DNA from: Escherichia coli
GTDB lineage: Bacteria > Pseudomonadota > Gammaproteobacteria > Enterobacterales > Enterobacteriaceae
Assembly (NCBI RefSeq): GCF_013315695.1
Contig: NZ_CP054353.1
DNA: 64,000 nucleotides
Direction: 5' to 3' (one strand)
This document shows positions 12 through 12,106 of this stretch, piece by piece. The notes below the pieces were generated by a model. The model searched no databases. It saw nothing but the letters and a program-made list of their open reading frames with translations, and had not been told where the DNA came from. Numbering within the stretch: the first letter of the stretch is position 1; every line of letters begins with the position of its first letter. The position numbers and the translations under genes were made by a program.

Positions 12-1067
12 TTAACCAATTTTGACGGTAACAAATTTGCGAATATCTGCCGGAACCGGCTGCGGTGCGCTGTGCGTCTGCACGTACTCAATCGCCGGAT
101 CGCCGTCCTCAATCCAGTTTTTCGGGTAAAACATGTTTTGCGTTGCGCCCGTTCTTACCGCTTCCTGTTCCAGGATCGCACCATAGGCCACCAGCCCTTT
201 ATTGTTGGTGTTGCCCAGGACCAGCAAATCAGGCTCAAGGAAATATTTTTCTGTGCCGTCGCTGTCAGTGTATTTGCCGGAATAGACGATAAGGGCCAGA
301 TCACCAAGATAGCCTTTAAAGCTCACCACTTCGCCCAGGTTTTTACATGCCAGCTCTGCGGCGGATTCTGAACCACGGGAGAGATCGTACAGTTCACGGA
401 ATTTTTTAAAGCTGCGTAACATGCGCCATACATCAACGCCCATAATCATGACGTTTGCGGGGCAACCTGCCTGATCTGCGTATAGCTCAATGTCATAGAT
501 TGGGTCGTGTATGTCTTTGTCCTGCTCTGACCATTTTTTACCGTCGGCCTGCTCTATGATGTTTTTTTCCGGTATCTTCCAGTCGATTTCATAGCGCTCT
601 ATGCCTTCGCCCTCAATGATGTTTTTTCCGGTCGTTACCGCATTTACCGCCAGCCATTCCACGCGCGCTTTAATGGCGTTTATCTGGCGGCGCATGTTGC
701 CAGTAATCAGGCGCATACGGCGGTAGGTAGGGTCGTTAAGCTGTGCTGGATCTTCTCCAGCCATGCGCATTATTGTTTTTAATGGATCGATTTCGTGTTT
801 TGGCTTCATGTAGCCAGGGCGAATAATGCTTGTTTCGTACCCTTTATCGCGCTGAACCTGGCTACCCACCATAGGCGAACAAAACGCCGACATAGTGACT
901 TCTTCAATATCCAGGTTATCTAACATGATGTCCTGTGTGTTGAATGTCGCCACGTTCGGGAAAAACAGCGCGGTAAACAGCGGACTGAATTTAAATTCCG
1001 CAATATCCTCGCGATTCAGGTACGCAAAAAGCTGGTTAGTGTTAAGTGCTATTGCTTTTACTGTCAT
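12..1067 (-). CDS. Major capsid protein, lambda gpE family
   Basis: 351-aa ORF; translation shares many conserved blocks with lambda E as I recall it (GY.KPKHE, DP.YRR.R, RSFK, RGS.SE, VYSG.Y, VLGNT, YPKNW..GDPA, QSAP). Start overlaps stop of upstream gene (TAATG); GGGGGTGA RBS. Confidence 0.8.
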   Translation of the reverse strand: MTVKAIALNTNQLFAYLNREDIAEFKFSPLFTALFFPNVATFNTQDIMLDNLDIEEVTMSAFCSPMVGSQVQRDKGYETSIIRPGYMKPKHEIDPLKTIMRMAGEDPAQLNDPTYRRMRLITGNMRRQINAIKARVEWLAVNAVTTGKNIIEGEGIERYEIDWKIPEKNIIEQADGKKWSEQDKDIHDPIYDIELYADQAGCPANVMIMGVDVWRMLRSFKKFRELYDLSRGSESAAELACKNLGEVVSFKGYLGDLALIVYSGKYTDSDGTEKYFLEPDLLVLGNTNNKGLVAYGAILEQEAVRTGATQNMFYPKNWIEDGDPAIEYVQTHSAPQPVPADIRKFVTVKIG

Positions 1068-1273
1068 TATTCACCCCCGTGAACCTGATTCATACCCAGC
1101 GCCGCGCGTAAATAGGCGCGTACCTGCCAGCCTGTTGACGGCTCAACCATCGCCAGCGGATCAAGTCCTGCCGCAATGCCTGCTTTTACGTTCTGCTGGT
1201 GGCGTTCCTTGAGCGCCTTCACGATGTCGGGGCTTATGTACACCGAAACACCGCCTTTTTTCTCTTCAGCCAT
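1067..1273 (-). CDS. Hypothetical small protein (68 aa), first gene of capsid operon
   Basis: ORF with AAGAGGA RBS ~10 nt upstream; translationally coupled to capsid gene; no recognisable family. Confidence 0.45.
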   Translation of the reverse strand: MAEEKKGGVSVYISPDIVKALKERHQQNVKAGIAAGLDPLAMVEPSTGWQVRAYLRAALGMNQVHGGE

Positions 1274-1304: not shown

Positions 1305-1358
1305 ATAACTGGATGTTCATCCAGTTATGATTATAATCATGATTGCATTTTGTGCAAT
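1305..1358 (-). promoter_or_regulatory. Promoter/operator of capsid operon: three adjacent palindromes overlapping sigma70-like -35/-10
   Basis: Perfect 24-bp palindrome ATAACTGGATG-TT-CATCCAGTTAT (1305-1328); 14-bp palindrome ATGATTATAATCAT (1327-1340) containing TATAAT on minus strand; ATTGCA-N5-TGCAAT (1342-1358) containing TTGCAC -35 at 16-bp spacing. Confidence 0.5.
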
Positions 1359-1436
1359 GATATTGAGTTGCGTTGCAAATTATGAAATTATTATCCCGAT
1401 CATGTGTGTCAGTGCACCAAAAAACCTCATATGCAA

Positions 1437-1510
1437 AAGCCCGATAAGCCACCTCTGACCTTATCGGGCTTTTTTTGGGCGCAAAAAAGCCGGATTGCTC
1501 CGGCTGTGTG
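1437..1510 (-). terminator. Two tandem hairpin terminators downstream of PerC-like gene
   Basis: GCCCGATAAG...CTTATCGGGC hairpin flanked by A-run and T-run (bidirectional), then AGCCGG-attgct-CCGGCT hairpin followed by T-run on minus strand. Confidence 0.5.
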
Positions 1511-1527
1511 GTGTGGTTCTGGTATTC

Positions 1528-1776
1528 CTACTCTGCTAATTTGCTCAGCCCCATGTCTGCGTAAGTGCGATTTACTGCATTTCTCAGGTCTGCATAGTTC
1601 TCCGTTGGCGGCTCCGGTGGCCTCTGTGCCTTCCTGGAACATTCCAGCCGTCGCATCGTGATGTGATGCCGTTCCTTGTCTGTCTCCACCAGCATCATGA
1701 CTTCACCCCATCGCGCCGCCGCCCTCCGGTAAAATCCTTTCGCTTCGAGTTCTTCCGCTATGCGGTCATGTACCAT
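1528..1776 (-). CDS. PerC-like transcriptional regulator (82 aa)
   Basis: Start chosen at internal ATG with GAGGGGGTGA RBS 10 nt after SSB stop; motif AEELEAKGFYRRAAARW resembles the PerC/Pch family signature from memory; needs profile search. Confidence 0.45.
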   Translation of the reverse strand: MVHDRIAEELEAKGFYRRAAARWGEVMMLVETDKERHHITMRRLECSRKAQRPPEPPTENYADLRNAVNRTYADMGLSKLAE

Positions 1777-1786
1777 CGTCACCCCC

Positions 1787-2197
1787 TCAGAACGGAATAT
1801 CATCACCGTAAGGGTCATCGCCTCCCGCTGGTGGCTGATTACCCTGTGCGCCTGTGGTTTTGCGTCTGTTCCCGCCAGGACGTGCCGCACGGGCACTGAT
1901 TACGCTGTCTGCAATAACCTGATAACCCTGACGCGTCTCCCCGTTCTGTCCGGTCCACTGGCTTACCTGCATCGTGCCGGATACGCTGGCAACGTCGCCT
2001 TTTTGATGTTTAGCCAGGAAGTCGGCCTGCTTACCAAATGCGATGACCGATAGCCATAACGTCGCCTGTCCGTCCTGTGCCTGACTGCATGGCAGTGATA
2101 CCGCCATACGCGCCAGCGTCATCGGTGTGCCCTTGCTGGTCTGTTTTACCTGCGGGTCGTCCACCAGCCGACCGTAAGCCGCTATCTGTGCTGTCAT
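1787..2197 (-). CDS. ssb: Single-stranded DNA-binding protein (SSB)
   Basis: 136-aa ORF, Gly/Pro/Gln-rich C-terminal linker ending in acidic tip ...GDDIPF, the hallmark SSB C-terminus; GGAGAGGTGG RBS; ATGA overlap with upstream gene. Confidence 0.8.
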   Translation of the reverse strand: MTAQIAAYGRLVDDPQVKQTSKGTPMTLARMAVSLPCSQAQDGQATLWLSVIAFGKQADFLAKHQKGDVASVSGTMQVSQWTGQNGETRQGYQVIADSVISARAARPGGNRRKTTGAQGNQPPAGGDDPYGDDIPF

Positions 2198-2445: not shown

Positions 2446-2477
2446 TTGCCACCTCAATTTATATATATAGAAACATG

Positions 2478-2795
2478 TGCGGGTTATGCGGGTTATTGGG
2501 TTATCTTAGCGTGCTAACCATTTTTTATCCTTTTATATCAGTATTTTGCAAAACACCCTGTTTATTATTTGCCCACCACGTAACCCGCAAAACGCTCAAA
2601 ATAACCCGCAAACGGGGTTTTTTCTGCGGGTTACGCATGACTGTCCGGTGTTACTTCAGTTATTCGCCTGCGGGTTATAATCGTGCTTTTGCGGGTTATA
2701 AATGCCCTTTTGCGGGTTACGTGCGGGTTATTGGTTTCCTTTATATTCATGCACTTAATACACTTATACACAGGATAACCCGCATAACCCGCAAT
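2478..2795. repeat. Iteron array / replication origin of the island
   Basis: About 11 copies of the 9-mer GCGGGTTA(T/C) in both orientations with AT-rich spacers, including tandem pairs, directly downstream of the primase-helicase gene. Confidence 0.7.
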
Positions 2796-2815
2796 TTTTT
2801 TCCTCACACAGGGGA

Positions 2816-4939
2816 TTAATCTTCATCATCAGGCTGGAACATCAGCACGTAAAAAACATGCTGCTTACCCCCAATCTTGCCCAGCGCCTTTTTTTTGTAT
2901 CGGCGATCGCTTCCCTTCTCCAGCATTCCGGCAGCATCCAGGGCACGCGCAAAATGCGCCGGATTAAATCCCTTCGCTATCTCACTCTCAAACACGTGCG
3001 GGAACGTGTAATAGCGCATCTCGTCATCTTCGTTGCGAATGCTCCCTTTTCTGTATCCGGCAAGCTCTTTAATCGGTAAATCACGCTCATCTGTATTGGG
3101 GTACGGAAGGTAGCGGCTAAACCCAAACGACGACAAAAACGCCTCAGCCTGTTCAACCATCTGTTTAAATTCCCTGTTACCCGTGCCGAACTCCTTCACC
3201 CAGGCATTAAAGTTATGCTGTATCGCGTCGCGGCATTCCTGCACGACCCAGCCAGTTACATGACCGGAAAGCACAAGCGCGGCCTCCAGTATGGCGAAAC
3301 GTTCACCCACGCGGTGGACCTGCTCGCCGTAGCTCTCCGGTATCAGGTTGCGCCACCGTTCGCGGCATTCCCTTACCGTATCCTTTGCCTCCTGCTGGTG
3401 GCCTGCCAGCCATTTAACCCACTCACGACCCGCCGCCCCGTGATTTGCTGTCCAGGCATCCTTTAACGCGTCAGCATGTTCCTTACCGTTGCTGTATTCG
3501 TGAAATTTCGTGGCTTTTTCCATCGGAACGTTAAGCAGTCGGACAAGCTGCCCCGCCTTAACTTTTATCCCCTCACTTTTGAGGAATGTCTCAACGTCCA
3601 TTTCTCCGGTGCTGATTGCCACCGTTCGCCAGTGTTTGATCTCCCTGTTGCCGCCATCCTTCGCCCCCTGCAATTTCCCTGAACCGTTAAACAGCGTATA
3701 AGCAGACGTTGACACTTCCCGCGCATTTCCGGCCTGGCCTATCTCATCCAGTGGTAAAAGCCCGTCATTATGGGCCTCGGCCTCATTGGCAATACCTAAC
3801 GCCGTGCCGTACCAGGTCAGCCGCTGCGCGTCCGGCTCTCCCCATAAACTTGATGCGATGTTCTGCGTGGTGGTCTTACCTGCCGATGACTGTTCGAAAA
3901 GATGCACCCCGAAGCCGTCAGCACCCACAAGGCCAATTAAAGGCGCTGCCAGTGACGTTGCCACACCCAGCATCATTGAGGCATTACCGCCAGCCAGCCG
4001 CGCCACACTCTCGCGCCAGCCCTCCGCCGTACCCGCCACGGAATAACCGTTAATCGCGGCGCTTTTTCCGGTAAACAGGATCGGTTTTTCAGAATCACCA
4101 ATGATCGAACCGTCCGGCATGATGTACGCGCCAAAATGCCAGCCCGTTGTTGTGCTTAACTGCCATTCCTCATGGCTTCCGCTTAACTGCATCCAGTCCG
4201 CCAGGATTGCCCTGTATTTGCCGTTGGTTGTCACGTTCAGCCCGTGATCTTTAAGTAACCGCCAGCCGTCACGGTCGCCGATACCACCACACGGGATCGC
4301 CATTGTGATGACTTCATGATTTGCTAATTTTTTCCAGCGCATGACGCGGTAATGCTCTTTACCGATCGTCCCCGTTCCCAGTAGTTCAAGCGGAGAACAT
4401 AACCACGTCTCAGGCCGGATAATTTCGCCTGACTGCTTATCCACTTTGGGCGTTACCCAGAAAACACCATCGGCGCGACTTTCAACGCGTGGCTTTAATT
4501 CGTCATCGCTATGGCTTCCGGTATCTTTTTTCTTTACCGGAAACTCAATAACCAGACCATCAGAAAGATTCTGCCGCTCACGGGCCAGATATTCGCGCCA
4601 GTTCTCCACCTCCTGACCGTGCATTCCATCAGGGTAAAAATTTGCATCCTGTACGCCTGCCGCCGCCAGCTTCTGACCAATCGCCTTGATCATTACTGGC
4701 TCAAGATGTCCGGCCCTGAATATGCGTACTGATTTTCGGCCTTCCGGCACAATTTGCAGCTTATCCAGTTCGGCAAGTTGTTGCTCTCCAAGCCAGACAG
4801 GAGGCACGTTATCGCCAGCCAGTCGCCCGTCCTGTTCCTGCCACTGTTTCGCATGTGCCCAGGCATCACTACCCGCAAAAATGATGACTTCCGTCATTTT
4901 GTCACGTGGCTGGTGTTTTAAATTTGGCGCTTTTTTCAT
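2816..4939 (-). CDS. Primase-helicase (P4 alpha-like, D5/SF3-type)
   Basis: ~707-aa ORF; Walker A-like SSAGKTTT; size and position (next to iteron ori, downstream of int/alpA) typical of satellite replication proteins. Likely start ATG at 4939 with GGAGAG RBS, overlapping upstream stop (ATGA); ORF track extends to 4954. Confidence 0.75.
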   Translation of the reverse strand: MKKAPNLKHQPRDKMTEVIIFAGSDAWAHAKQWQEQDGRLAGDNVPPVWLGEQQLAELDKLQIVPEGRKSVRIFRAGHLEPVMIKAIGQKLAAAGVQDANFYPDGMHGQEVENWREYLARERQNLSDGLVIEFPVKKKDTGSHSDDELKPRVESRADGVFWVTPKVDKQSGEIIRPETWLCSPLELLGTGTIGKEHYRVMRWKKLANHEVITMAIPCGGIGDRDGWRLLKDHGLNVTTNGKYRAILADWMQLSGSHEEWQLSTTTGWHFGAYIMPDGSIIGDSEKPILFTGKSAAINGYSVAGTAEGWRESVARLAGGNASMMLGVATSLAAPLIGLVGADGFGVHLFEQSSAGKTTTQNIASSLWGEPDAQRLTWYGTALGIANEAEAHNDGLLPLDEIGQAGNAREVSTSAYTLFNGSGKLQGAKDGGNREIKHWRTVAISTGEMDVETFLKSEGIKVKAGQLVRLLNVPMEKATKFHEYSNGKEHADALKDAWTANHGAAGREWVKWLAGHQQEAKDTVRECRERWRNLIPESYGEQVHRVGERFAILEAALVLSGHVTGWVVQECRDAIQHNFNAWVKEFGTGNREFKQMVEQAEAFLSSFGFSRYLPYPNTDERDLPIKELAGYRKGSIRNEDDEMRYYTFPHVFESEIAKGFNPAHFARALDAAGMLEKGSDRRYKKKALGKIGGKQHVFYVLMFQPDDED

Positions 4940-5235
4940 TTCTGCTCTCTCCACGCGGCAATCATGTTTTTCAGTTCCTGTAGTTTTTTATCCACATCCA
5001 CACGTGACACATGGTTATTTCTGGAAGTCGGGATTTCCCGCCTGAATCTGCTAATAAAGATCTCCACGTTCAGCGAACTATGAAATGAATAGCCATCACG
5101 AATAAAATACACACGGTCAAACATCAGTTCTTTTACCGTTACTCTGTTGCCGTTCTTATCCAGATAAATAGCGCCGGGGATAATTTTGGGGTGTGCATAA
5201 CCGCTGGCAGTCAAGCCAGATAAATATGTTCTCAT
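4936..5235 (-). CDS. Hypothetical protein (99 aa), low-GC cargo
   Basis: ORF translationally coupled to primase gene (ATGA); local GC ~30-38% versus ~50% for neighbours; no recognised domain. Confidence 0.5.
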   Translation of the reverse strand: MRTYLSGLTASGYAHPKIIPGAIYLDKNGNRVTVKELMFDRVYFIRDGYSFHSSLNVEIFISRFRREIPTSRNNHVSRVDVDKKLQELKNMIAAWREQK

Positions 5236-6488: not shown

Positions 6489-6785
6489 TCAAGCGGCCTT
6501 GCCTGAATTAATGCGTTCGCGGTTTTTGACCCACGCCACAACCTCAGACTTAACCCAGCCAACAGAACGACCGCCGAGACTGATACGGGAGGGGAAGCGG
6601 CCCTGCTTTTCCATCTCGTAACGAGTTGTGCGGCAAACGCCTGTTAGCTCTCTGCATTCTTTTTCGCGGATTACGCGATCTTCATTTATTTCACGCATAC
6701 AAAAACCTACATAAAAATTACGTATATAAACTTTTCTCTTAGCTGTAGATATATGAGATCGGATATTACTTAGATTCTTTTTCAC
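6489..6785 (-). CDS. alpA: AlpA/Vis-family phage transcriptional regulator / excisionase-like
   Basis: C-terminal part matches AlpA-type HTH pattern (ECRELTGVCRTTRYEMEKQGRFP...GGRSVGWVKSEVVAWV). Start uncertain: GTG at 6785 or ATG at 6698. Confidence 0.6.
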   Translation of the reverse strand: MKKNLSNIRSHISTAKRKVYIRNFYVGFCMREINEDRVIREKECRELTGVCRTTRYEMEKQGRFPSRISLGGRSVGWVKSEVVAWVKNRERINSGKAA

Positions 6786-7107: not shown

Positions 7108-8346
7108 TCAAGAATTTTGGGAGTAAATTCGCGGGGTCATAACAACGATTTTTTCATCATTGTTCTGGAGAAGCTCGAGACGCTCAACCCATAGATTAAG
7201 AGCGTCACGTTTTGCATCGAGATAACGGGAGTGATTATAGACTCGTTGCATTCCTGGCAACTGGTGCGCGGTTAGCTGCTCCACTACATGAGGATCCACG
7301 CCTAAATCGTTCAGCATCGTTGTAAACGTGTGCCGGATGTCGTGCAACGTCCAGGGGGCTTGATTAATGCGTCTGTGTGCCGTTCTTCCGTACTCTGATA
7401 CAGATGATTGCCCTTTCAGTTCTCCGAGTAATAAGCCCGTGTGTCGGTTCTGCTCCACCAGCTTCGTTACGAACGGCAAGATCGCTTCCGGTATTGGCCT
7501 GAATATTGCTACCTTCGTTTTGCTGTGTTCTTTCGGCACAGTCCAGAGCATTTCTTTAAAATCCCATTCCTGGACCTCAGAGCGTCTTAGCTCAGTGGTA
7601 CGGCATCCGAAGACAATCAGGAGGCGAATCAGGGCGCTGTAGTACGGTGTGTAAATTTTTTCATCCAGGGCGCGTAGTAATTCCCCAAGCTCCTTGTTTG
7701 TTAGTACGCGCTCGCTTATTTCTGCTTTTTTCCCAACATCACCTACAACCATATCATCTAGAACGTTGGTAATTGCGTAGCGTCGTTTGCGGCAGTACTT
7801 AAGCGCCTGCTTGCATACCTGTAACAAAAATCCTGCTGATACCGGATTACGCATAGCAAGCTGATCAAAACAGGTCAGCCAGTGGCGTAGCTCGCATTTT
7901 TCCAGCGGCATAGCACCAATATGGCTGATTATGTGTGTATTGATCCGGCTTTTCAGAGATTCGTAATCTGTGCGCTTTTCCTTCGCGTACGATTCAAGCC
8001 AGTAAGTGAGCGCTTCCTTAACCGTAACAGGTGATAACGCTTCCTGTACGGTGTGATTAAGCTCATGGCGTGGATTTTTACCCTCAGCAAGCCAGGCGCG
8101 ACACTGCGACGCTTTTTCCCTGGCTGCTTTCAGGCTCAAATCTGGATAATTTCCCAGCCTCAGACGTTCAGGGGCTACCTTCCTGCCTGTTCCGGCCCTG
8201 TAAGTGAAATACCAGGTTAACAGGCCATTGGTTGAATGCCTTACGCTAAGGTTGCCACCATCATTAAAAAAGGTGTTTTTTGTGGTTGGTGATCCGCTTA
8301 ATTTTCGTAAAAGAGTGTCGCTAAGTCTATGAATTGCCCTGCTCAT
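7108..8346 (-). CDS. int: Tyrosine-type site-specific integrase
   Basis: 412-aa ORF; C-terminal catalytic region with HDIRHT and ...VYNHSRY (R-H-R-Y family pattern); located at island edge next to host gene. Confidence 0.85.
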   Translation of the reverse strand: MSRAIHRLSDTLLRKLSGSPTTKNTFFNDGGNLSVRHSTNGLLTWYFTYRAGTGRKVAPERLRLGNYPDLSLKAAREKASQCRAWLAEGKNPRHELNHTVQEALSPVTVKEALTYWLESYAKEKRTDYESLKSRINTHIISHIGAMPLEKCELRHWLTCFDQLAMRNPVSAGFLLQVCKQALKYCRKRRYAITNVLDDMVVGDVGKKAEISERVLTNKELGELLRALDEKIYTPYYSALIRLLIVFGCRTTELRRSEVQEWDFKEMLWTVPKEHSKTKVAIFRPIPEAILPFVTKLVEQNRHTGLLLGELKGQSSVSEYGRTAHRRINQAPWTLHDIRHTFTTMLNDLGVDPHVVEQLTAHQLPGMQRVYNHSRYLDAKRDALNLWVERLELLQNNDEKIVVMTPRIYSQNS

Positions 8347-9047: not shown

Positions 9048-10994
9048 TTACTCTCGTGCCAGAGCATCTACTGGATCCAGTCGTGCCGCATTTCGTGCGG
9101 GTAACCAGCCAAATAAAATCCCGGTGACCGTCGAGCAGAGAAATGCCAGCAGCAGCGCCAACGGTGAAAAACCGATCTCCCAGCCGGGTAAGAAAAGCTG
9201 CAAGGTGAAAGCAATTAACAGTGACAGTGTTATTCCCAACGCGCCACCGACCAGGCAAACCAGTACGGCTTCGATCAGGAACTGTTGCAAAACATCACTT
9301 GCTCGCGCACCTACAGCCATGCGAATGCCAATTTCCCGCGTCCGCTCGGTCACTGACACCAGCATAATATTCATTACACCAATACCGCCCACCACCAGCG
9401 AAATCACCGCCACCAGCGTCAGAAACAGTTGTAAAGTACGTGTGGTCTTTTCAACGGTTTTCAAGACGCCGTCCATGTTCCAGGTAAAGAAATCCTTCTT
9501 ACCGTGGCGCAGTGAAAGTAAACGCGTGAGTTGCTGTTCCGCCTCGGCGCTGTCAAATCCTTCTTTCACCCTGACAGTAATGGAGTTCAGCCACGACTGG
9601 CCCATAACTCGCCCGGACATCGTGCTGTAAGGTAGCCAGACACGCAGCACTTTACTGCTACCAAACATCGACTGTTTTTCTTCCGCCACACCAATGACTC
9701 TGGCGGGCATATTGCCGACCAGAATTACCTCACCAACCACATCTGCTTTATGGGGGAAAAGCTGGCGGCGAGTATTACTGTCGAGAACCACGACCTGCGC
9801 ACGACCGTTCAGCTGCTCCTGATTAAAGGTGTTCCCTTCACTGAAGGTCATGCCATAGACATTAAAATAATCGCCGCTCACGCCATTGGCACTGGCAGCC
9901 ACATCAACATTGTTATAACGCAGGTGCAGGTTTTGCGAGACGGCAGGTGTGGCTGAGGCGACCCACGGTTGTTTTTGGATGGCGATTAAGTCATCGTACT
10001 TCAGCGCCTGCTGATATTGCGGATCGTCATCGCCAAAATCTTTCCCGGGATAGACATCAATAGTATTCGTACCAATAGAACGAATATCCGCCAGCACCAT
10101 TTGTTTGGCGGCGTCGCCCACCACGACAATGGAAACCACCGACGCAATACCGATAATAATCCCCAGCATGGTCAGTAAAGTACGCATTTTATTCGCTGCC
10201 AGCGCCCGCCATGCCATCGTCAGCGCTTCGTTAAAACCGCTGACAAATTGCCGCCAGCCAGAGGCCGTGTTGACAACAGGTTCCGTCCCGCCAGCAACAT
10301 TCACTTTTTCAATGGCGGGAGGATTGCGCACAATTTCACCGTCACGAATTTCGATCACCCGCTCGGCCTGAGCAGCGACCTGCGGATCGTGGGTAACGAT
10401 AATCACCGTATGCCCGCGATCGCGCAGCTGATGCAGGATCGCCATCACCTCTTCGCCAGAATGGCTGTCCAGTGCGCCGGTTGGTTCATCGGCAAGAATT
10501 ACCTGACCGCCGTTCATCAATGCCCGCGCGATGCTGACACGCTGTTGCTGACCACCCGAAAGCTGTGCCGGATAATACTCTGTACGGTCTTCCAGCCCCA
10601 GTCGTTGCAGCAACTCCTGGGCGCGAAGCAGCCGCTGTTTCCGCTCAAGACCAGCATAGACAGCGGGTACTTCAACGTTCTGCTCGGCGGTTAAATGCGA
10701 AAGCAAATGGTAACGCTGGAAAATAAAGCCGAAATGCTCGCGGCGCAGTTGCGCCAGCGCATCGGCGTCCAGCGTGGCAACATCCTGACCGGCGACGCGA
10801 TAGGTGCCGCTGGTGGCCTTATCCAGGCAGCCGAGAATATTCATCAGGGTCGATTTACCGGAACCCGAAGCGCCAACAATCGCTACCATCTCACCGGCAT
10901 AAATATCGAGGCTGATGCCCTTCAGCACCTCAACCTGCTCATCACCGGCAGGATAGCTGCGACGAATATCCTTTAATTCGAGCAAGGGCGTCAT
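9048..10994 (-). CDS. macB: Macrolide export ABC transporter ATP-binding/permease MacB
   Basis: 648-aa ORF with N-terminal ABC ATPase motifs and C-terminal FtsX-like permease; recognised as MacB. Confidence 0.9.
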
Positions 10995-12106
10995 TGTGCA
11001 GCTCCTGGTTTGTCCTCACCAATCACCACTTCATCGCCCGCTTCCAGCCCTTTGACAATCTCAACATCGGTATCGTTACGTGCGCCAATCGTCACTTCAC
11101 GCTCCCGTGTTTCACCATTACGCAACAATTTGACTTTATAACGATTATCGCCAACCGGATCGCCTAACGCCGACAGAGGGATCGTCAGCACATTTTTCAC
11201 ATCGGTGAGCTGAATATGCACTTGCGCGGTCATATCCAGCCGCAGCAAACCATTGGGGTTGGGTACTTCAAAACGGGCGTAATAGAAAATAGCGTCGTTA
11301 ACCTTTTCCGGCGTCGGTAGCACATCCTTGATTTGCCCCTCGTAGCGCGTCAGTGGATCGCCAAGCACCGTAAACCAGGCTTTTTGCCCCGGCTTCAGGT
11401 GGATTACATCCGCTTCAGAAACCTGCGCTTTTACCAGCATGGTGCTCATATCTGCCAGCGTCAGAATGTTCGGTGCTTGTTGTGCGGCAATCACCGTCTG
11501 GCCTTGCAGAGTGGTGATTTGCGTGACTTCCCCGGCCATCGGAGCAACGATGCGGGTGTAATCGAGATTGGTTTTAGCCGTATCGAGAGAGGCCTGATTG
11601 CGCTTGATTTGCGCGTCAATGGTGCCAATTTGCGCCTGTTTCACAGCCATCTCCGTCGCGGCGGTATCGAGATCCTGCTGTGAAACCGCTTGCGTTTGTG
11701 CAAGACGTTGCTGACGGGAATACGTCACCCGCGCCAGTTTCAGCTCCGCTTCCGCCTGCTGCCGCTGCGCGCGTAGCTCCATCAGCGTTGCTTCCACCTC
11801 CTTAATCTGGTTTTCAGCCTGTTCAGGATCAATAACCCCTAAAAGCTGGTCTTTTTTTACTTTATCGCCAATCGCCACCGACAGCGTTTTCAACTGACCG
11901 CTGACCTGCGCGCCCACGTCAACCTTACGCAGCGCGTCCAGCTTTCCGGTCGCCAGCACGCTTTGCTGTAAATCACCGGGGCGCACAATCAGCGTCTGAT
12001 AAGTCGGCTCGGGTGCGTTAAGAATTCTCCATAACGTAATCAGTCCGGCGATGACTATCACCAGCGCAATAACGTAACGCTTCTTCACGGTTTTCCGCTT
12101 TTTCAT
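10991..12106 (-). CDS. macA: Macrolide export periplasmic adaptor MacA
   Basis: Membrane-fusion-protein family; ATGA overlap with macB; start set at MKKRKTVKK. Confidence 0.9.

Follow-up and report, generated by a model that had tools for sequence, protein, structure and literature searches.

The locus described here raises the question of whether a small PerC-like gene that lies just before a capsid operon is the switch for that operon. The gene is near one end of a 64-kb stretch of E. coli DNA (the window), and an earlier note on this DNA had proposed that its product could activate the late operon of the island that carries it or could cross-regulate host genes.

The gene itself is clear. 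A minus-strand ORF (1528..1776) runs from an in-frame ATG at 1776 to a stop codon that ends at 1528 and encodes 82 amino acids plus the stop. An alternative GTG start at 1896 would give a protein of 122 amino acids; this longer form overlaps the SSB gene and gains nothing in its match to the PerC domain. We favor the ATG at 1776 because a Shine-Dalgarno sequence (GAGGGGG, 1788-1782, minus strand) lies 5 nt upstream of it, where it overlaps the stop codon of SSB (1789-1787). The family assignment in the earlier note was correct: Pfam's PerC model (PF06069) matches the 82-aa protein with E=1e-35, and as the score of 122.3 bits compares to a cutoff of 22.6, the match is far beyond what chance would give. 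The match covers residues 1-78 of the protein and positions 1-77 of the 90 in the model. Also, the identical 249-nt coding sequence in strain N10 is named "PerC family transcriptional regulator" in RefSeq (WP_001672381.1). (A word-indexed protein search returned close E. coli relatives only; an exhaustive HMMER search recovered the wider family, in 99 clusters.)

In an alignment of 44 family members, all of the invariant residues (L10, E11, R17, A19, and W23) are kept in this protein, as are the near-invariant residues D4, A7, G14, R18, R22, C46, M75, and G76, and the core pattern of the family (D.KAE.LE..GLYRRAA.RW ... RR..C ... MG) is present throughout. What is missing is the C-terminal tail that most members have after the MG (G.aFR or WRNY): close relatives continue as ...EIWRNY.. 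and distant ones as ..G.AFR.., while this protein ends in ...MGLSKLAE. The tail is not a defining feature of PF06069, and the EcCICFT073 allele has a short C-terminus too. Against relatives at 41-81% identity, perC has a dN/dS of 0.26-0.49, which indicates purifying selection. Because of this ratio and because every invariant residue is present, perC is not simply decaying.

The element that carries perC is a phage-inducible chromosomal island (PICI) of the EcCICFT073 type, inserted between clpS and yljB/cspD. The earlier note had described PerC/Pch genes as prophage-borne; they are found on prophage-like elements in general, but this one rides a phage satellite and not a phage. The window opens with the integrase-proximal part of the PICI, which takes up 8.4 kb, and we read the rest of the island (the decoration protein, TerS, and the clpS boundary) from strain N10, at 98.7% identity. 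The genes follow the order int, alpA, pri-rep with an iteron origin, and packaging genes, in a single orientation, and the order matches that of the prototype EcCICFT073, which is located in CFT073. (A length of about 11-12 kb and the absence of lysis and tail genes also belong to the definition of this type.) In detail, a tyrosine integrase (7108..8346, minus strand) marks the cspD/yljB-proximal end of the island. An AlpA-like helix-turn-helix regulator (6489..6698, minus), a YlcI/YnfO-family gene on the plus strand, Icd-like and small ORFs on the minus strand, and a 99-aa DUF4222 protein (4936-5235, minus) follow. Next are a DUF927 primase/helicase (pri-rep; 2816..4954, minus) and a PICI replication origin (2470..2800) with at least 12 iterons (TGCGGGTTA, in both orientations), which lies between the primase gene and an 83-aa ORF on the minus strand. 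Between this ORF and perC is the SSB gene (1787..2197, minus; Pfam SSB E=4e-17; TIGR00621), immediately 5' of perC. The packaging operon begins with a 68-aa ORF (1067..1273, minus; phrog_3255, with no function assigned) and the major capsid gene (Phage_cap_E, E=3e-49; 12..1067, minus). In strain N10 it continues past the start of the window with the genes for the decoration protein and TerS, each of which is followed by a hypothetical gene.

The DUF4222 protein belongs to the family of RgdR, a regulator of type III secretion and motility that is encoded on O-island 51 (OI-51). It is 31% identical to the O157 RgdR and reads P20-G21-A22 at the positions where R20-G21-D22, the motif after which RgdR was named, stands in the active EHEC protein.

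The closest known relative of perC is the PerC-like gene of EcCICFT073 (WP_000233305.1, which by gene order is probably c1497 of E. coli CFT073). Both proteins have 82 amino acids, of which 79 are identical (96%); the three substitutions are M28Q, H38Q, and I39V. The neighbors are shared as well: SSB lies upstream, and the terminators, the late promoter, the 68-aa ORF, the capsid gene, and the decoration gene lie downstream. Between the perC stop codon and the 68-aa ORF, only three substitutions separate the two islands. The two islands differ in their integration site (clpS/cspD here, roxA/phoQ for EcCICFT073) and in the primase, which is a DUF927 allele here and a 1,755-nt primase in CFT073. 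The next relative is PchE of EHEC O157:H7, from O-island 51 (CP-933C, the cf-PICI EcCIEDL933). It is 79% identical and occupies the same post-SSB position; a published description of OI-51 places "PerC (PchE)" behind the gene for an ssDNA-binding protein (PMC3378721). PchE has 90 amino acids and a C-terminal tail (...EIWRNYPDS) that is missing here. Also, its island continues with an extra small ORF and then an HK97-type capsid module whose promoter region does not contain the LexA-like box discussed below. Thus the 82-aa gene is an ortholog of the already described PerC-like gene of EcCICFT073, a PchE-type allele and a PerC/Pch-family regulator. The gene, its assignment to the family, and the presence of PerC on PICIs were already known.

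What do such proteins do? PF06069 and the GLYRRAA.RW core are shared with EPEC PerC and EHEC PchA-C, which activate LEE1/ler. LEE1 activation has been reported for PerC and PchA-C and not for PICI-borne alleles (PMC11773190), and that study, citing Porter 2005, reports that LEE1 fusions were unaffected by the PerC-like genes of EcCICFT073 and EcCIEDL933. According to Fillol-Salom et al. 2018 (PMC6092414), some E. coli PICIs encode PerC alleles and some of these activate LEE. A third PICI-borne member, EcCIMP1_025, shares about 40% identity with the alleles of EcCICFT073 and EcCIEDL933 and represses LEE1 in C. rodentium (PMC11773190); its authors noted its resemblance to ANR, and the same 2025 study of EcCIMP1 describes PerC regulators as common in Gram-negative PICIs (PMC11773190). 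The host of the island studied here is probably LEE-negative.

perC probably belongs to the transcript of the replication genes. A promoter scan gave no minus-strand promoter-like site within the SSB gene, and the ribosome-binding site of perC overlaps the SSB stop codon, which together suggest co-transcription. The earlier note had correctly put perC between SSB and the capsid promoter. Downstream of perC are two terminators and a promoter. The first terminator is an intrinsic terminator (AGCCGGAgcaaTCCGGCT then T6; 1482..1505, minus, with the hairpin at 1505-1488) that ends the early, or replication, operon right after perC. In islands without perC the same hairpin is found directly 3' of SSB. 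The second hairpin (1435..1473) is bidirectional, has 14-bp arms (AAAAGCCCGATAAG / CTTATCGGGCTTTT), and is kept in the islands of EcN, O157 BB24, and CFT073. Beyond these lies a putative late promoter (1330..1357, minus) with a -35-like TTGCAC (1357-1352), a 16-nt spacer, and a perfect -10 TATAAT (1335-1330), in a region of 31% GC. We infer its function from these elements. A sigma-70 scan passed over the TATAAT promoter on account of its -35 element, which matches at just 3/6 positions, and instead listed a weaker site that lies further upstream. A second palindrome, ATCATTGCAcaaaaTGCAATCAT (1339-1361), overlaps the -35 region and may be an operator for some regulator.

perC closes the early operon and is followed by a terminator and the late promoter, a place that resembles that of phage late-gene regulators such as lambda Q. 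PerC could then be an early-to-late switch that activates or de-silences the AT-rich capsid/packaging promoter directly downstream, which takes up the activation of the late operon that the earlier note had suggested. We consider this quite unlikely. In its favor, perC is at the end of the early operon, the two terminators and the promoter region with 31% GC come next, and Pch-type proteins de-silence AT-rich promoters that are bound by H-NS (PMC4764244). Also, if PerC were such a switch, one might expect it to be found wherever the late region is found, and to some extent it is. The late region (the 68-aa ORF and the intergenic region) is present in 618 of 5,426 complete E. coli genomes, and the contiguous arrangement of capsid, 68-aa ORF, intergenic region, perC, and SSB in 407 of 5,426, which puts perC directly upstream in about two thirds of the islands with the late module (407/618). 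The remainder argues against the switch, as the late module occurs without perC in about 27-34% of the 618 genomes. Similarly, in an evenly spaced sample of the arrangements, about 5 of 60 had the capsid gene, the 68-aa ORF, and SSB without perC.

In the EcN island, the SSB gene is followed directly by the terminator, with no perC, and yet the second hairpin, the promoter, the palindrome, and the 68-aa ORF are nearly identical to those in the window. The -35 element, the -10 element, and the operator are almost unchanged, and when we looked in this island for a promoter change that would compensate for the lack of perC, we saw none. Obligate co-occurrence of perC with the late promoter and operon is therefore not what we observe, given the 407 contiguous cases among 618 and the EcN promoter without perC.

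Conversely, perC does not depend on this late module. Its clade is present in 1,182 of the 5,426 complete E. coli genomes, and most of these have downstream modules other than this late region. perC is also found 5' of an unrelated capsid module, of the HK97 type, in cf-PICIs. Its place before two unrelated E. coli capsid modules (Phage_cap_E and HK97 cf-PICI) could be taken to favor a switch, but in strain TOE17 the perC before the cf-PICI capsid module is a pseudogene with an internal stop. Other E. coli islands have SSB, ProQ, and PerC followed by defense-like genes, without capsid genes, and perC islands with a Q antiterminator in place of structural genes downstream also exist. (In one E. 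coli PICI variant, SSB is followed by three successive ORFs of the PerC family and then by a Phage_antitermQ homolog, with capsid genes absent; L004:8001-8297, 9223-9694, 11043-11435, and likewise L005 and L006.)

The same pattern holds across genera. When we scanned one genome per Enterobacterales species, we obtained 45 perC loci, 14 of which have the order Int-AlpA-primase-(SSB)-(ProQ)-PerC. Within the three genes upstream of perC, DUF927 occurs 12 times and SSB 8 times. The genes 3' of perC are heterogeneous (tape-measure-like, SMC/AAA, ABC-3C, and Hha), and none of the 45 loci has a capsid or terminase gene downstream of perC. Because primase and SSB recur upstream and the downstream genes are mixed, perC is tied to the end of the replication operon and not to a particular late module. 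Its synteny with the primase and SSB, and not with capsid or terminase genes, speaks against a late-operon activator. We conclude that perC is an optional cassette with a modular distribution, linked to the replication operon and not to the capsid genes. Phage genomes give no context for perC, because just two of 50,697 phage records matched in a tblastn search, both weakly. For this part of the PerC family at least, the carriers look to be satellites and islands rather than phages.

Other features of these islands deserve mention. PICI-like islands of Pantoea, Erwinia, Chimaeribacter, and Leclercia (Int-AlpA-DUF927 primase-PerC) carry a tape-measure-like gene of about 900-1,140 aa located 1-1.4 kb 3' of perC (L020:11557-14697, L023:11534-14689, L025:11529-14684, L026:11676-15086, and L016:11367-14045), which is unusual cargo for a satellite that hijacks capsids. 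In several islands, SSB and perC are separated by a gene with a ProQ/FinO domain, which may encode an RNA chaperone (L007:7477-8004, L008:9462-9998, L016:8532-9017, and L020:9535-10011). As to how optional genes come and go, the terminator AGCCGGAGCAATCCGGC with its T run recurs after SSB in EcN and after perC in the window and in CFT073. The O157 BB24 island encodes perC and an extra 74-aa ORF, and the same terminator stands behind each (L054:9626-10260; compare window 1482-1527). Optional genes appear to be inserted at the post-SSB point as cassettes that are bounded by terminators.

A switch of this kind also draws some support from the tape-measure-like gene 3' of perC in five islands of other genera. 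Against it, the late promoter has a strong LexA-box-like operator, which together with the perfect TATAAT fits repression and de-repression and not the need for an activator. The candidate operator is the palindrome AACTGGATGTTCATCCAGTT (1307..1326), which starts 4 nt 3' of the -10 element and is the core of a 15-bp perfect inverted repeat (1301-1332). As the pattern CTG-N10-CAG matches 31 times in the window and is uninformative by itself, we used a position weight matrix, which was based on about 29 LexA boxes of E. coli in published compilations. With this matrix AACTGGATGTTCATCCAGTT scores 21.7 bits, as compared to a median of 19.5 for the training sites (18.7 when each was left out in turn), and the runner-up in the whole window scores 9.0 bits. 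AACTGGATGTTCATCCAGTT resembles the ruvAB box; with the ruvAB box dropped from the training set, it still scores 21.6 bits. The core is kept in the islands of EcN, O157 BB24, N10, and CFT073, and a scan with the matrix found no such box in the late regions of the cf-PICI and CH4784. These matches suggest that the packaging genes are under SOS/LexA control, with a putative operator at 1307-1326, and the promoter of the capsid operon looks to be LexA-controlled.

We also considered whether the 15-bp inverted repeat (1301-1332) is a leader hairpin or attenuator, and rejected this in favor of a protein operator. First, transcription from the TATAAT would begin within the left arm of the repeat. Second, related islands differ in the outer left arm only, without compensating changes. 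Third, the CTGGAT-N4-ATCCAG core is intact in those islands.

The PICI papers that we searched do not mention a LexA-like operator on a packaging promoter, and our literature search found no study that links EcCICFT073 to LexA or PerC to PICI packaging. In SaPIs, operon I (packaging) is reportedly under SOS control (Ubeda 2007). We view the putative operator as a more novel and more interesting lead than the gene call for perC.

PerC is probably not a sequence-specific activator dedicated to the capsid operon. Another possibility is that perC is a functionless or decaying passenger that is kept by linkage to the island alone. This seems very unlikely. It is true that perC is missing from many otherwise equivalent islands, that one allele has an internal stop codon, that the C-terminus of this allele is shortened, and that its orthologs reportedly had no effect on LEE1 (PMC11773190). 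On the other hand, purifying selection has acted over a long divergence, the family-invariant residues are all in place, and the ribosome-binding site is intact. Nor would one expect a passenger to belong to a clade that is found in 1,182 complete E. coli genomes or to hold a conserved position in several genera.

The predicted structure offers some clues to what PerC might do. The AlphaFold model (pLDDT 86.5) has four helices (residues 5-13, 16-29, 33-50, and 62-74). When the model was compared to the PDB with Foldseek, no match reached E<=0.001, and those that came up were generic helical bundles (MIT domains, for example); a sequence search of the PDB gave chance-level matches (best E=0.18). 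The model matches no solved fold significantly, DNA-binding or other. This may speak against a switch that acts at the late promoter, but a protein without a recognized fold may still bind DNA. The N-terminal half of the protein resembles the ANR family (Aar, Cnr, and Rnr; NCBIfam NF033650). Residues 7-52 align to positions 9-54 of the 54 in that model, with a score of 20.5 bits (E=3e-4), which is below the cutoff of 32, but 34 of 44 PerC-family members match NF033650 (best E=3e-7). Because the score is under the cutoff and yet the relationship is family-wide, we view this as homology of the N-terminal half to ANR and not as membership in that family. Three predicted helices are common to both; PerC proteins have an extra C-terminal helix (residues 62-74), and the conserved tryptophan of ANR (W43) is a histidine in this allele. 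ANR proteins do not bind DNA and work by contacting AraC-type regulators and H-NS; no DNA-binding fold was recognized in the model of PerC. Aar, which does not bind DNA itself, interacts with AggR and H-NS (PMC5570504, PMC4983702), and Pch, which has no homology to known DNA-binding proteins, relieves silencing by H-NS, StpA, and Hha (PMC4764244).

Putting these together, we lean slightly towards perC being an accessory, trans-acting modulator of the PerC/ANR type, carried as optional cargo by the PICI and acting on H-NS or on regulators of the AraC type. Under this proposal, the gene would be optional cargo between SSB and the terminator of the early (replication) operon. As it lacks a promoter of its own, it would be made mainly when a helper phage turns the island on via AlpA. 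The product, a small protein with four predicted helices of which the first three are homologous to the ANR anti-activators, would act in trans through protein contacts with nucleoid complexes of the H-NS type, with AraC-type regulators, or with both, and would alter the expression of AT-rich, horizontally acquired genes. The basis for this mechanism is the relatives that have been studied (Pch, Aar, and EcCIMP1_025), and we infer from them the binding partner of PerC and the direction and targets of its regulation. Several observations weigh against the proposal: the reported lack of a LEE1 effect for the EcCICFT073 and EcCIEDL933 alleles, the lambda Q-like place of perC, its presence directly upstream in about two thirds of the islands with the late module, and the C-terminal tail that this allele lacks. 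The other suggestion in the earlier note, that PerC cross-regulates host genes, is plausible.

A related possibility is that PerC targets the helper phage, for example by modulating the expression of helper genes to aid it or to interfere with it. We think that this is unlikely. The presumed expression of perC only upon induction of the island operon, the near absence of the family from the genomes of phages, and the presence in some E. coli islands of three copies of PerC together with a Q-type antiterminator would all suit a protein that is directed at the helper. Also, the EcCIMP1 study reports that the island aids the replication of its helper (PMC11773190), but this effect was not assigned to the PerC-like gene of EcCIMP1 (PMC11773190). 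And when the post-origin genes of EcCICFT073 were expressed singly, only c1503 cut plaque formation by lambda (PMC6739421). Given its place past the origin, perC was probably one of the clones that had no such activity.

A more speculative variant of our favored modulator, which we hold to be quite improbable, is that PICI-borne PerC proteins are satellite-encoded anti-H-NS factors, which would be helpful and not essential and would act along with cleavage of LexA to license the packaging genes. PerC made from the early operon after induction by the helper would loosen the silencing by H-NS of the AT-rich regions of the satellite, such as the late promoter (1290-1400) and the int-alpA region. 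If true, this would explain both the conserved position of perC and its frequent loss.

As a gene call, perC adds little, as RefSeq already names it and the PICI literature already has PerC as satellite cargo. It is present in about one in five complete E. coli genomes, and our comparative results narrow the question of what role a PerC/ANR-like protein has in a phage satellite or in hosts that are LEE-negative. As for the packaging genes, the LexA-like operator, if true, would mean that the SOS control of satellite packaging known from SaPI operon I also reaches the PICIs of Gram-negative bacteria.
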